Shown here: positions 840 to 62,340 of the stretch, one piece after another
Position numbering within the stretch: position 1 is the stretch's first letter
How the letters are laid out: the number at the start of each line of letters is the position of its first letter
Assembly (NCBI GenBank): GCA_964430545.1
Contig: CAYSFG010000033.1
Location: forward strand, 6,394 to 70,393
Source: Candidatus Woesearchaeota archaeon
Lineage (GTDB): Archaea > Nanobdellota > Nanobdellia > SCGC-AAA011-G17 > GW2011-AR18
Direction: 5' to 3'
DNA: 64,000 nucleotides
Position numbers and translations under genes: made by a program
The notes under the pieces: generated by a model
The model's database searches: none
Told to the model about the DNA's origin: nothing
Seen by the model: the letters and a program-made list of their open reading frames with translations, nothing else

Positions 840-1484
840 ATGGGAAGAAAGAAGAAAAAATCTACAAAAATTGAAGAAGTTATAATTAAGGAAAATATTG
901 TTCATGAACTTCCTAAAGAAGAATCTTCTGTTGAAGTCAAGGATGTTTTAAATGAAACTACTGAAACGGTTGAAGTATATTTGGAAAGAGAAATTGTTAT
1001 TTCTGATAGTACAAATTTGACTAGAGAATTATATGATAAAACTAGATACGGTGAGCCTACAGAAAATAAAAAATTTCAATATTCTTTGATTGAAGGATTA
1101 TATTTATTAGAAAGGGGAAAATTTAAAATAAAATCTGGTAATAAAACTTTAGATTTTGATTCTTATATTAAAAAAGCAAGAAAAATAGAACCAAATTTTT
1201 GGGTGAGATATTGTGTATTTAAGGATTTAAGAAAACGTGGTTATATTGTTAAAACTGCTTTAAAATTTGGTGCTGATTTTAGAGTTTATGATAGAGGTGT
1301 TAAGCCTGGTGAAGATCATGCAAGATGGATTGTTTATCCTGTATCAGAGGGAGAACAACTTGGGTGGTATGAATTCTCTGCTAAAAATAGAGTAGCACAT
1401 TCAACAAGGAAAAGATTATTAGTTGCTTGTGCAGATGTAGAATGTCAAATAACATATTGGGAAATAAGGTGGATTAGACCTTAA
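840..1484 (+). CDS. endA: tRNA-splicing endonuclease catalytic subunit (EndA family) with an N-terminal extension of about 60 aa
   Basis: C-terminal core FWVRYCVFKDLRKRGYIVKTALKFGADFRVYDRG...HARWIVYPV matches the EndA catalytic domain. Confidence 0.8.
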   Translation: MGRKKKKSTKIEEVIIKENIVHELPKEESSVEVKDVLNETTETVEVYLEREIVISDSTNLTRELYDKTRYGEPTENKKFQYSLIEGLYLLERGKFKIKSGNKTLDFDSYIKKARKIEPNFWVRYCVFKDLRKRGYIVKTALKFGADFRVYDRGVKPGEDHARWIVYPVSEGEQLGWYEFSAKNRVAHSTRKRLLVACADVECQITYWEIRWIRP

Positions 1485-7740: not shown

Positions 7741-8038
7741 TAATAATATTTATTTAATCTGATTAATTAAACTTTTGTTTTTAATATCATTCTATTTTTG
7801 TAATATTTTAAAAAATTTTCAATAAAGATTTATAAATAATAAAATAAATTAAATAAAAATGATAAAAAAGATAGAAATTTAAAAATTTATGAAGAATATT
7901 AGTTTTAAAAATAGCAAACATTCAACAAAATATTTTATATATAAGAAATTTGGTTATTTTCAAATTAATATTACATCAAAATAAAGAGAAGGTATATTAA
8001 ATAATAAATTAGATATAATAAAATTTGAAAAATAAAAT

Positions 8039-8148
8039 GCCATACCCAAGATTTGAACTTGGAACAACAGCCTGACTCACTAAGGTGGATATGAGAGTTA
8101 CACCCTAATTTCTTAAGTCTGTGCTCTGCCAGGTTGAGCTAGTATGGC
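8039..8148 (-). tRNA. Intron-containing tRNA (110 nt) with an intron of about 37 nt in the anticodon arm; isotype unresolved
   Basis: Minus strand: acceptor GCCATAC/GTATGGC (7 bp), D arm GCTC-AACCTGGCA-GAGC, T arm CCAAG-TTCAAAT-CTTGG, discriminator A. The anticodon stem CAGAC only pairs with GGCTG on the far side of a 37-nt insert, with one A-G mismatch. The unspliced loop reads TTAAGAA. Confidence 0.7.
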
Positions 8149-9732: not shown

Positions 9733-9818
9733 TGGACTTGTCGGGATTTTCGAAATTTTGTCGAACCCGAAGTTTCATCGACGCCAACGATGTGTATTAA
9801 CCATTCTACTACAAGCCC
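9733..9818 (-). tRNA. tRNA-Ala (anticodon GGC) with a 13-nt insertion in the T-loop
   Basis: Minus strand GGGCTTG TA GTAG AATGGTTAA TAC A CATCG TTGGCGT CGATG AAACT TCGGG [TTCGA CAAAATTTCGAAA AT] CCCGA CAAGTCC A. The G3:U70 wobble is the alanine identity pair and the anticodon loop is TTGGCGT. The T stem TCGGG/CCCGA encloses 20 nt instead of 7. Confidence 0.75.
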
Positions 9819-17803: not shown

Positions 17804-17850
17804 TGAGGCTGCCCGGATTTGAACCGGGATCTCAAGGTCCCAAACCTCGG
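17804..17850 (-). tRNA. tRNA-Pro(UGG)-like 3' half (position 26 through 3' end) with no 5' half nearby; split-tRNA half or tRNA fragment
   Basis: Minus strand C CGAGG TTTGGGA CCTTG AGAT CCCGG TTCAAAT CCGGG CAGCCTC A is a perfect anticodon arm (anticodon TGG) plus T arm plus 3' acceptor strand. The complementary 5' acceptor GAGGCTG and a D arm are absent within about 400 nt on either side. Confidence 0.5.
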
Positions 17851-18197
17851 GTTCTAACCAAGTTATACTACAAATACAGTTCAAAGGCCAAAACCTATTG
17901 AATCCCCATTATATTAACTTGGGCCCAAATTATTGGATTATGAAGACTTAATAAAGTTTACTTTATGTAACTTATTTCATCAATAAACCTATTTACTCAA
18001 TTCATTTTAATTGTAAATCTAATATCTATTGTATGTTTGTTATCTTTATTTCTTCTTCTGAGGATTATTTAATTTAGTATTATAATTTTTTTTGATTTCA
18101 TTTTCTAATATTAATTATTAGGTTTATAAAATTCTATTGTGTAGTTGGTAAGATCATTTAATAATATAAGATATATTAATTTTAAAAAATGTTAAAT

Positions 18198-20251: not shown

Positions 20252-20977
20252 CTATTTTTTAGCTGTTGCTGCTGCTTTTGCTGCTGGTGTTTTTCCTGTT
20301 TCTGGTTTAGCTCCTGCTGTTGATGCTGTTCCAGGTGTTGCAGGTGCTCCAGCTGCTGCTTTTGCTGCTGCTTCAGCTTCAGCTGCTGCTTTTGCTGTTG
20401 CCTTTTCTTTGTCTCTAGTTTTCTTTTTTACTTCTAGATCTTGAGCCATTGTTATTAATTGTTTTTTCTTTTCTTCTGAAGGCTCTGTTTTTTCTGTTTT
20501 TATTTCATTGTCATATTTTCCTTCATCTACTTCCTTTAGAACTTGTATTGCATCTTTTCCATCTATCAGTATACCTGCAGATTGACAGCTTCCTAATACT
20601 GTTTTTACAGCCGCTTTTAGACTTTTAACTAATAATGCTGAACTTTTCATCTTTGCTATTTTTATAACCTGTTCAAATGATATTACGCCTGCTTTGTTTA
20701 TTTGTGGTTCTCCTGAACCTTTTTCTAAGTTTATTTCTTTGAATATTAATTGTGATACTGGTGGAGTTCCTATTGTTATTTCAAATGTTTTATCTTCTGT
20801 GTCTACTATGATTTTTACTGGTACTTTCATCCCTTTAAAGTCTTTAGTTTTTTCATTTATTTGAGTGACTACTTGACCTATATTTACTCTAAGTGGTCCA
20901 AGAGTTCCTCCAAGTGCTGCTCCTGCAACAGCTTTTCCACCATCAACCAATGCTTCAACTATAGTTTTCTTTCCCAT
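20252..20977 (-). CDS. rpl11: 50S ribosomal protein L11 (uL11) with an Ala/Lys/Pro-rich C-terminal tail of about 80 aa
   Basis: GGKAVAGAALGGTLGPLRVNIGQVV...TIGTPPVSQLI is the L11 core. Residues 160-241 are low-complexity KAAAEAEAAAKAAAGAPATPG...AAKAAATAKK. Confidence 0.85.
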   Translation of the reverse strand: MGKKTIVEALVDGGKAVAGAALGGTLGPLRVNIGQVVTQINEKTKDFKGMKVPVKIIVDTEDKTFEITIGTPPVSQLIFKEINLEKGSGEPQINKAGVISFEQVIKIAKMKSSALLVKSLKAAVKTVLGSCQSAGILIDGKDAIQVLKEVDEGKYDNEIKTEKTEPSEEKKKQLITMAQDLEVKKKTRDKEKATAKAAAEAEAAAKAAAGAPATPGTASTAGAKPETGKTPAAKAAATAKK

Positions 20978-34807: not shown

Positions 34808-35527
34808 ATGCAAATAAAAAATAATTTTATTCAGTTTAGATTAGTCAAGGAAGATAAAGAATATATTTATATTAAAGGAACTAGTGGTCCTGCTAAAGAA
34901 GTTAGAATATCCAAACATTTAACACCCGAACTTTATTTTTTAGCAGGAATAATTCTTGGCGATGGACATTTAGACAAAGATATAAAAAGAATTACATTAG
35001 AATTAACTGACAGAGAAAAATTAGAAAAGATTGCTACAATTTTTGAATTAGTATTTTCTTATACAAAAATAAAAATTGCAATTAGAACTGATAAAAGGGA
35101 AAATAGAAAAATAAGATTTTATTTTAATATAAATAATTCGCCAATATACCATTTATTCAACACTATCTTTGGAATACCTAAAGGAAAGAAAAGTGATATA
35201 ATAAAAGTGTCAAAATTTATTAAACAATCAAATTTAAAATTCAGAAAATATTTTCTTCTTGGAGTTTTTATAACAGACGGGGGGCGAAGACAAGGGGGTT
35301 TTGGTTTATCTACAGCTAGCAAAATATTTAGAGAAGATATATCTGAACTACTTTTTTCAATAGGAATTATACATTCAAAAGATAGTTGGATAAACAAAAA
35401 GTATAAAAAACCTTATTATGGTCTATCTTTTAGAAAAAAACAAATATACAATATGCAGGGGTACCAAAGTGGTCAAATGGGCCAGATTCTAGATTCTTTA
35501 TATGAGAAACTAGAAGGCTTAGCTTAG
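34808..35527 (+). CDS. LAGLIDADG-family homing endonuclease-like protein; its 3' end overlaps the 5' exon of the downstream tRNA
   Basis: Two LAGLIDADG motifs, FLAGIILGDGHL and LLGVFITDGGR. The ORF continues about 73 nt into the tRNA starting at 35455, so its true C-terminus is uncertain. Confidence 0.65.
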   Translation: MQIKNNFIQFRLVKEDKEYIYIKGTSGPAKEVRISKHLTPELYFLAGIILGDGHLDKDIKRITLELTDREKLEKIATIFELVFSYTKIKIAIRTDKRENRKIRFYFNINNSPIYHLFNTIFGIPKGKKSDIIKVSKFIKQSNLKFRKYFLLGVFITDGGRRQGGFGLSTASKIFREDISELLFSIGIIHSKDSWINKKYKKPYYGLSFRKKQIYNMQGYQSGQMGQILDSLYEKLEGLA

Positions 35528-35618
35528 GAAATCCTTAGGTGTTATGGGTGATTTTACACTACGATTTTATGACACCTGGTGGCTTAGGCCTTCGCAGGTT
35601 CGAATCCTGTCCCCTGCA
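35455..35618 (+). tRNA. Class II tRNA (Leu-like) carrying an intron of about 80 nt; anticodon unresolved
   Basis: Acceptor GCAGGGG/CCCCTGC (perfect), 3-bp D stem CCA/TGG with Leu-type D loop AAGTGGTCAAA, 3' anticodon strand CCTGG, 14-nt variable arm TGGCTTAGGCCTTC, T arm GCAGG-TTCGAAT-CCTGT, discriminator A. 164 nt against an expected 85. Confidence 0.65.
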
Positions 35619-53136: not shown

Positions 53137-53221
53137 AGCCCCTGGTGGAAATTGAATCCACAACCTCTTCCTCATTAGCATAAGTTACCAAGGAAGGACT
53201 CCACCATTAAGCTACAGGGGC
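53137..53221 (-). tRNA. tRNA-Thr (anticodon GGU) with a 13-nt canonical anticodon-loop intron
   Basis: Minus strand GCCCCTG TA GCTT AATGGTG GAGT C CTTCC TTGGTA [ACTTATGCTAATG] A GGAAG AGGTT GTGGA TTCAATT TCCAC CAGGGGC T. Confidence 0.75.
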
Positions 53222-61443: not shown

Positions 61444-62340
61444 ATGGATACTCAAACTATTGATAGTGTAAGATATGCTTTAGGAAAAGCACATAGCGAA
61501 ATTTATGGTGCTACAATTATTAAAGAACCTGTAAAACCTTTTTATAAAACAGGAACTCATGGTGTTAGTGAAAGTTTAAGAAAATGTACTGATTCTGGTT
61601 ATAAACCTTTATTCATGCCTGAACTTGCTATTGCAAGAAGCAAAACAGATGGTGATTCAATGTTATGGAAAGATTGGTTTTTAACAACAAGTATTATAGC
61701 TACAGGAAGAACAAAAGGGGGAAATCCTGTTGTAGTTTATGCTCACGTACAGAATCCTTTTAATAATCCAGACAATATAAGAAATGCAGTAAATGGAACA
61801 GAAGGAAGAAAAATTGTTAATGGTGCTGGAACATTAACTAATGAAGAATTTTATCAATTACTAGACCAGCAAGGAAATGGAAGAGTTTTCGTTGTAGACT
61901 ATGATAAACTAGAAAGTTCAACAAGTGGGATTATAAAAGTTAAAGATGCTTTAGAACATCCACAAACAATACCCTTCTTAGGAAGCAAAGAAATAGCAGA
62001 AGCTTATATTGATAGATATCAAAAAGTTCATGATAAAAATATTGGAGTATGGTATTATGATGATTTAGGAGAAGAACCAAGGGCTCGTTTGCTCTGTGCT
62101 GGCAGCAGCGTCAACGGCGGCTTGTTCAGCAGCTGCAGCCTTGACTACAGCGGTCGTGTCCTCGGGGTTGCGCCGGAGGCGCAGTGCGTCGAAAAAAAAG
62201 TAGTAGATGAACCTAAAGCAGAACCTCTTGAAGCTAGAGTAAGTGGGCCTAGTGTAGAATTATTAAATGATGGAAGACTTGTTAGAGTTGGTGGAATTAT
62301 TTATGTTCGTGCAGAAGGTTTAGAATTAAGATCGCAATAA
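61444..62340 (+). CDS. Hypothetical protein with atypical composition, containing a 120-bp block of about 65% GC
   Basis: Low K/I/N content compared with neighbours. Nucleotides 62085-62205 (PRARLLCAGSSVNGGLFSSCSLDYSGRVLGVAPEAQCVE) are strongly GC-rich. Confidence 0.5.
   Translation: MDTQTIDSVRYALGKAHSEIYGATIIKEPVKPFYKTGTHGVSESLRKCTDSGYKPLFMPELAIARSKTDGDSMLWKDWFLTTSIIATGRTKGGNPVVVYAHVQNPFNNPDNIRNAVNGTEGRKIVNGAGTLTNEEFYQLLDQQGNGRVFVVDYDKLESSTSGIIKVKDALEHPQTIPFLGSKEIAEAYIDRYQKVHDKNIGVWYYDDLGEEPRARLLCAGSSVNGGLFSSCSLDYSGRVLGVAPEAQCVEKKVVDEPKAEPLEARVSGPSVELLNDGRLVRVGGIIYVRAEGLELRSQ

Follow-up and report, generated by a model that had tools for sequence, protein, structure and literature searches.

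A predicted 13-nt T-loop intron in the tRNA-Ala(GGC) gene of a Woesearchaeota archaeon

A tRNA-Ala(GGC) gene in a 64-kb stretch of Woesearchaeota DNA (all 64,000 nucleotides of which are referred to below as the window) is very probably a functional gene interrupted in its T-loop by a 13-nt intron of the archaeal, protein-spliced type, the splicing itself being predicted from sequence. That this is a real tRNA-Ala(GGC) with a helix-bulge-type T-loop intron of 13 nt was already the core of the initial annotation, and that reading is supported by the fold of the precursor, by homologous genes, by an intron-less relative and by an EndA gene in the same window. The window has a G+C content of about 25%, and its gene content is archaeal (TFB, Cdc6/Orc1, Spt5, aIF5A, ribosomal proteins L11 and S8e, diphthamide synthase, FtsZ and SepF). 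A class II aminoacyl-tRNA synthetase gene is located 1.9 kb upstream of the tRNA-Ala gene, and its closest relatives, at 68-87% identity, are found in metagenome-assembled genomes of Candidatus Woesearchaeota and Nanoarchaeia. As the host is a DPANN archaeon, endonuclease-spliced tRNA introns are part of its expected biology.

The gene, the fold of its precursor and its detection

Read 5' to 3' (the reverse complement of 9733-9818), the gene is GGGCTTG TA GTAG AATGGTTA ATAC A CATCG TTGGCGT CGATG AAACT TCGGG TTCGACAAAATTTCGAAAAT CCCGA CAAGTCC A, with TTTT directly after the discriminator A73. It specifies a 7-bp acceptor stem that includes the G3:U70 pair, a perfect 5-bp anticodon stem (CATCG/CGATG) and the anticodon loop TTGGCGT, with the anticodon GGC; the G3:U70 pair and the anticodon stem and loop had been recognized at the outset. 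Also borne out by the sequence is the earlier observation that the T stem (UCGGG/CCCGA) encloses 20 nt, as against the usual 7. The parts of the gene, with the intron in the position that we favour, are as follows.

9733..9818 (-): complete tRNA-Ala(GGC) gene, 86-nt precursor body, CCA not encoded (sequence read)
9760..9818 (-): 5' exon, tRNA positions 1-59 (ARAGORN cloverleaf and minimum free energy fold; the end at 59 deduced from bulge geometry)
9818-9812 (-): acceptor 5' strand, in the 5' exon
9785-9783 (-): anticodon GGC, in the 5' exon
9770-9766 (-): T-stem 5' strand, in the 5' exon
9765-9760 (-): T-loop bases UUCGAC, in the 5' exon
9747..9759 (-): proposed 13-nt intron AAAAUUUCGAAAA at 59/60 (excision restores a 7-nt loop; six further distinct genes have homologous inserts here)
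9749..9765 (-): hBH/BHL core, a 4-bp helix of U54-G57 (9765-9762) with intron CGAA (9752-9749), in the minimum free energy and centroid folds
9746..9748 (-): 3-nt bulge A-A-U between this helix and the T-stem 3' strand (minimum free energy fold)
9733..9746 (-): 3' exon, beginning with U60 (9746) and the T-stem 3' strand CCCGA (9745-9741)
9740-9734 (-): acceptor 3' strand CAAGUCC, in the 3' exon, followed by the discriminator A73 (9733)

The minimum free energy and centroid folds of the 86-nt precursor agree, both giving a cloverleaf in which the T stem is followed by the AAU bulge, a UUCG(A):(U)CGAA helix and a loop, so that a 3-nt bulge adjoins a 4-bp helix at the exon-intron boundary. The initial annotation had supposed that the insert pairs with itself (TTCGA with TCGAA) in a helix-bulge-type arrangement; the type of motif stands, but in the fold the helix joins exon bases U54-G57 to the intron CGAA. 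The loop closed by this helix is 9 nt long, or 7 nt if A58:U is also paired. A strict hBHBh' (3-4-3) motif is not formed, the 5' site being in this hairpin loop of 7-9 nt with no inner helix. For want of a second 3-nt bulge and an inner helix the intron is classed as relaxed hBH/BHL, the relaxed hBH or 'BHL' form being already established in the literature (PMC5829648; PMC6379350).

Such a gene is easily overlooked. Default ARAGORN reported no tRNA in the whole 64-kb window, and the tRNA-Ala gene was never reported by ARAGORN under default settings, with -i, or with -i and a lowered threshold, because this program models introns in the anticodon loop only. The Rfam model RF00005 gave the unspliced gene 27.6 bits where its gathering cut-off is 29, and did so with the T arm handled as a deletion and with a false 3' end; this low score reflects the intron and not a non-tRNA. 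(The match to 9762-9818 seen at a relaxed E-value is a truncated pseudo-alignment, and we did not accept it as a gene model.) At its curated threshold Rfam found three of the five tRNA genes that we count in the window, and missed tRNA-Ala. After deletion of the 13 nt, ARAGORN reported tRNA-Ala(GGC) at 119.7 bits, with a 7-nt T loop restored. Five homologues (described below) behaved like the window gene in this respect: none of the six precursors tested was seen by ARAGORN, and all six were reported as tRNA-Ala(GGC), at 117-122 bits, when excised at 59/60. No alternative standard T arm, which the initial annotation had named as evidence that would tell against an intron, was found in the precursor.

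Several other readings of the locus were set aside. A self-splicing intron is not a candidate, the insert being just 13 nt long and the window containing no Rfam intron match; group I and group II introns have a catalytic RNA core of hundreds of nucleotides. Short ORFs (21-30 aa) overlapping the gene on both strands were put down to chance, and scans for sigma-70 promoters and intrinsic terminators gave background-level matches from models that are not applicable to an archaeon.

Homologous tRNA-Ala genes

A comparison of orthologous tRNA-Ala genes had been suggested as a check on the intron. Homologous genes were approached in two ways. For the first, metagenomes were scanned with a pattern in which exon bases alone were fixed (TGGC, 13 N, CGGGTTCGA, 6-36 free bases for the T-loop, CCCGNCNNGTCCA). 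Eleven loci matched, nine of which were tRNA-Ala(GGC) genes giving six further distinct sequences; the other two were high-GC chance matches. The T-loop inserts of the six are 13, 13, 14, 20, 22 and 33 nt long and show 36-62% identity to that of the window gene, the exons showing 64-86%. In all six a 4-mer able to pair with U54-G57 has been kept (CGAA in four, with CGAG, CGAC and CGUA also occurring), and the seven distinct sequences all have an A-N-U bulge beside the T stem, in a common register. In a register-fixed alignment of the seven, the intron content having been free in the search, the U54-G57 helix is 92.9% paired; when the 3' partners are slid by one column, overall pairing falls from 96.8% to 54-64%. 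The T-stem pair 49:65 covaries in the same alignment (U-A, G-C and C-G).

Individual homologues add some detail. One with a 13-nt insert like that of the window gene (L003) has a different loop sequence (TTCGATATACTCACGAAAGT), and the two with the longest inserts, L017 (33 nt) and L016 (22 nt), can form an extra inner helix of 5-6 bp, making a near-complete BHB. The sequences L016-L025 come from short metagenome contigs. The textbook motif was not returned by the thermodynamic fold in two of the longer homologues, L018 taking another register and L016 lacking the central helix; the L018-type register (helix U55-A58:UCGA) was rejected as a cleavage frame, as it would leave a 9-nt T-loop.

For the second approach, the loci of relatives were fetched by way of the neighbouring synthetase gene, the tRNA-Ala(GGC) gene lying downstream of it on the same strand. 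L003, with its 13-nt insert, is one of these loci. Two relatives (L005 and L007) have no intron in tRNA-Ala(GGC). In L005 the gene lies directly downstream of the same synthetase gene, has TTCGAGT as its T-loop and, in its mature sequence, shares 80% identity with the window gene. Other relatives have introns elsewhere: L008 (9586-9700) and L012 (10609-10720) each have a tRNA-Ala(GGC) with a well-formed 21-nt BHB intron at 53/54 together with a D-loop intron, L009 (11058-11158) has D-loop and variable-region introns, and L010 (3609-3714) has D-loop and anticodon-loop introns. The D arm of the genes in L008-L012 is different, so these may not be strict orthologues of the window gene. Position 33 of the L009 tRNA-Ala is apparently C, not U.

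Thus the helix and bulge are retained while the sequence and length of the insert drift, and the insert is present in some relatives and absent from others (L005 and L007), as would be looked for in an intron.

Other tRNA genes, the splice junction and the endonuclease

Five tRNA genes were recognized in the 64-kb window, all five with introns (some of these being proposed). The four others, which have normal T arms and introns elsewhere, and the endonuclease gene are as follows.

8038..8148 (-): tRNA(CAU) for Met or Ile2, with two proposed introns, at 29/30 (21 nt) and 37/38 (16 nt), and an 8-nt micro-exon CUCUCAUA
17804-17907 (-): tRNA-Pro(UGG), of which Rfam covers 17877..17804 only, with a non-pairing 5' acceptor strand
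35455-35618 (+): tRNA-Arg(UCU), with an 83-nt intron
53137-53221 (-): tRNA-Thr(GGU), with a 13-nt intron at 37/38
840..1484 (+): tRNA-splicing endonuclease EndA, 214 aa, a single unit with N- and C-terminal domains (Pfam PF02778 and PF01974)

The tRNA(CAU) model came from trying exhaustively the excisions that would give back a 5-bp anticodon stem with a loop of 7 nt; a 9-bp helix pairs its two introns to one another. ARAGORN with -i calls this locus (8148..8038) Leu(TAG/AAG), but there is no long variable arm and the two-intron tRNA(CAU) is the better solution. In tRNA-Pro(UGG), the 5' strand appears to be split into GGGG, a 30-nt insert and UUG, suggesting an acceptor-stem intron near 4/5; rejoined, GGGGUUG pairs with CAGCCUC. 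The D arm of this tRNA is weak, as in the tRNA-Pro of ARMAN-2 (PMC3239211). A LAGLIDADG homing-endonuclease ORF (34808-35527) runs into the 5' exon and intron of tRNA-Arg, an overlap that may be due to chance or may indicate a mobile element beside or inside the tRNA gene. No second T-loop insert was found in the window. In particular, the tRNA-Phe with a T-loop intron described in the initial annotation did not emerge there from scans for acceptor/T arms, for GAA anticodon arms or for any 5-bp stem rich in G+C around TTCRA and a further 7-69 nt; the tRNA(CAU) locus, which contains 'GAA', may be what was taken for it.

Three GC-rich islands considered as possible hidden RNA genes (2782-2970, 20255-20426 and 62042-62259) turned out to be coding sequence. 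The second, at 58% G+C, is accounted for by an Ala/Lys/Glu-rich C-terminal tail of about 80 residues (AKAAAEAEAAAKAAAGAPATPG...) on ribosomal protein L11 (20252-20977, -), which is unusual for L11 and resembles the hinge of a stalk protein. In ORF 61444-62340, which has no Pfam match, an island of about 110 nt (62085-62195, +) with about 70% G+C is in frame and stop-free (PRARLLCAGSSVNGGLFSSCSLDYSGRVLGVAPEAQCVE); a foreign insertion, a chimera created in assembly and an odd domain are all possible origins.

Where, then, would the tRNA-Ala precursor be cut? A guide within the window is the intron of tRNA-Thr(GGU) (53221..53137), which matches that of tRNA-Ala in length and architecture: after the anticodon stem come a 3-nt bulge (UGA), a helix of 4 bp (UUGG:CUAA) and a loop of 9 nt, and there is no inner helix, so that this is a BHL intron of the same design as the T-loop intron. 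In it, each strand is cut two bases beyond the helix on the 3' side, in the geometry of a bulge-helix-bulge. Transferred to tRNA-Ala, this rule gives UUCG-AC/AAAAUUUCGAAAA/U-CCCGA, that is, an intron at 59/60 and a mature T-loop UUCGACU. As the AAU bulge abuts the T-stem 3' strand and the cut follows its second base, the U is the sole loop base contributed by the 3' exon. Position 59/60, like 37/38, separates the sixth and seventh bases of a 7-nt loop, and the two sites are geometric equivalents. The initial annotation had the intron at 58/59, with a mature loop TTCGAAT; either cut restores a loop of 7 nt, but the geometry makes 59/60 clearly more likely, and it is on this basis that we infer the exact junction.

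The same endonuclease-spliced intron might nevertheless be cut one base upstream (at 58/59, or the equivalent 57/58), releasing CAAAAUUUCGAAA (9748-9760) and leaving UUCGAAU in the mature tRNA. We consider this unlikely. The restored loop is as good and the ARAGORN score is equal (119.7 bits), A58 is able to pair with U in the fold of the window gene to extend the helix to 5 bp, and broad-specificity endonucleases tolerate bulges of 1-4 nt (PMC3239211). But the 3' cut would have to be made, in a non-standard way, after the first bulge base and not the second, which is not how the tRNA-Thr 37/38 intron is arranged; the A58:U pair is missing in two of the homologues (L003 and L025); and the published DPANN precedent sits at 59/60 (PMC3239211).

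More radical alternatives are that the insert is never removed, or that it does not exist. If it were retained, the tRNA would have an enlarged T-loop of 20 nt, or the gene would be a decaying pseudogene. The sub-threshold Rfam score (27.6 against 29 bits) would suit this, as would the sighting of just one, alpha-type, EndA in the 64-kb window. We regard it as very improbable, however, as the exons are intact and evidently under selection in divergent genomes, with covariation in the T stem, and as the inserts vary freely (from 13 to 33 nt) yet keep the 3-nt bulge and the 4-mer that pairs with U54-G57: a drifting insert with a fixed pairing signal is what would be expected of a splice signal, not of a structural loop or of decay. 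Retention would, moreover, lock T54-A58 in a helix and so abolish the elbow between T-loop and D-loop. That TTCGA occurs twice in the 20 nt (TTCGACAAAATTTCGAAAAT) raises the question of an assembly error, or of a slippage duplication of TTCGA within a normal T-loop, but an artefact of this kind can virtually be dismissed: the same 86 nt, identical throughout, are present in two independent assemblies (ERR4904393 and ERR3478687), so the insert is not an assembly slip; the 13-nt insert of L003 (TTCGATATACTCACGAAAGT) contains no direct repeat; and six other distinct genes have inserts at the same site.

On the preferred reading, a spliced intron at 59/60, processing of the precursor can be predicted from its sequence in the following terms. 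The conserved T-loop bases U54-U55-C56-G57 would pair with the CGAA located close to the intron's 3' end, and the resulting 4-bp helix would stack on the T stem, the 3-nt AAU bulge separating it from the T-stem 3' strand; the 5' splice site would lie within the closing loop, with no second bulge. On each strand EndA (840-1484) would cleave two bases beyond the helix in the 3' direction, at one site behind C59 and at the other behind the second A of the bulge (9747/9746), whereupon the U at 9746 would become U60, and an RNA ligase would then join the exons into a 73-nt tRNA with the T-loop UUCGACU. The joined sequence would be ...GGGUUCGAC/UCCCGA, as against ...UUCGA/AUCCCGA if the cut were at 58/59. 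No RtcB-type ligase gene was recognized among the window ORFs scanned.

The relaxed tRNA-Ala substrate is encoded about 8 kb from the EndA gene. The closest solved structures to this EndA are the Nanoarchaeum equitans alpha subunit (3IEY_A, E 7e-34) and the Methanocaldococcus jannaschii enzyme (1A79, E 1e-30). Residues Y150, H160 and K191 align with the catalytic triad and show no variation across 12 Woesearchaeota sequences, and to judge from these residues the genome encodes a catalytically competent EndA. From residue 67 onwards its sequence runs collinear with that of the strict M. jannaschii enzyme. The N. equitans alpha subunit has a Lys-rich insertion of 6 residues ahead of its catalytic His, which is absent from this EndA and from 11 Woesearchaeota homologues. 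The region in which a CSL- or ASL-like loop might occur (residues 70-79) reads YGEPTENKKF. There is a Lys/Glu-rich N-terminal extension of 43 residues, which we set aside as a candidate specificity element since it is variable or absent in close homologues. No second EndA-like (beta) ORF was found within the 64-kb window. In the textbook view, relaxed substrates need (alpha-beta)2 or epsilon2 endonucleases (PMC6379350; PMC5829648), and points against our best explanation are that the 5' site is relaxed and yet a single alpha-type EndA alone is seen in 64 kb, and that the folds of L018 and L016 depart from the textbook motif.

Relation to known archaeal tRNA introns

The nearest precedent is in ARMAN-2 (Candidatus Micrarchaeum acidiphilum), whose pre-tRNA-Cys(GCA) has a 13-nt intron at 59/60 of relaxed hBH (BHL) form that is cleaved in vitro by the ARMAN-2 endonuclease (Fujishima et al. 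2011, PMC3239211), whereas an enzyme of strict specificity barely cuts the ARMAN-2 T-loop substrate (Hirata et al. 2012, PMC3488258). The window intron resembles this one in having a DPANN host, a T-loop site at 59/60, a length of 13 nt and a relaxed hBH/BHL motif. There is a further likeness to ARMAN-2 tRNA-Pro(GGG), which has introns at 53/54 and 59/60 (PMC3239211), in that two sister Woesearchaeota (L008 and L012) here have a 53/54 intron in tRNA-Ala(GGC). The differences are that the tRNA is Ala and not Cys, that the host belongs to another phylum, that the ARMAN-2 intron has been cleaved in vitro and ours is predicted from sequence, and that ARMAN-2 has a three-unit epsilon2 EndA with an ASL loop in place of a single alpha-type unit of 214 aa.

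Non-canonical BHB, HBh' and hBH introns are also well known from Crenarchaeota (Thermoproteales) and Nanoarchaeum (Marck and Grosjean 2003 and Sugahara et al. 2008, as cited in PMC6379350 and PMC3241643). As those citing papers present them, these introns likewise occupy sites other than 37/38, namely the D-loop, the T-loop, the variable region and the acceptor stem; certain genes are interrupted by more than one of them, and the splice motifs are of relaxed form. The range in the window is similar, comprising the T-loop intron, a proposed acceptor-stem intron and a proposed 29/30 plus 37/38 pair. On the same accounts, the enzymes differ: the EndA of those organisms is a heterotetrameric (alpha-beta)2 with a Crenarchaea- or N. 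equitans-specific loop, and in our 64 kb neither a beta subunit nor such a loop was found. Compared with the canonical archaeal 37/38 intron, the tRNA-Ala intron shares the enzyme family and the geometry of stem, 3-nt bulge and 4-bp helix, but it lies in the T-loop, and its helix uses T54-G57 and not bases of the anticodon loop. The bases T54-G57 are universally conserved in T-loops.

The position, length and motif class of the window intron are therefore already known from ARMAN-2; the novelty is confined to the identity of the tRNA (Ala, GGC), to the lineage, and to the company of a single-unit EndA with no N. equitans-type loop. As T-loop introns of this size and shape at 59/60 have been documented before, the general picture is unchanged. 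A survey of DPANN genomes that included one from Woesearchaeota found alpha4-type EndAs alongside many disrupted tRNA genes, noted that standard predictors leave DPANN tRNA sets incomplete, and linked an 'L3' loop with broad specificity (Kaneta et al. 2018, PMC5829648); set against that loop, the Lys-rich insertion of 6 residues is missing from the window EndA in its alignment with the N. equitans alpha subunit. For annotation, introns such as this one help to explain why DPANN tRNA sets seem incomplete (PMC5829648).

For evolution, the tRNA-Ala(GGC) genes of Woesearchaeota, with no intron in some, one at 59/60 in others, a 53/54 plus D-loop pair in others again, and further combinations besides, provide a compact system for the study of intron gain, loss and movement; more tentatively, the introns of orthologous tRNA-Ala genes appear to turn over quickly between sister genomes. 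For enzymology, a relaxed T-loop substrate with a single-unit EndA nearby that seems to have none of the known specificity loops bears on the broad specificity of DPANN enzymes. It is conceivable, though we put it forward as a tentative and somewhat doubtful idea, that a single alpha-type Woesearchaeota EndA processes relaxed bulge-helix-loop introns at many non-canonical sites (59/60 and 53/54 in the T-loop, the acceptor stem, 29/30 in the anticodon stem, and the D-loop) without the specificity loops of N. equitans, Crenarchaeota or ARMAN-2. If this is so, broad substrate specificity would have a further structural basis, as yet undescribed.
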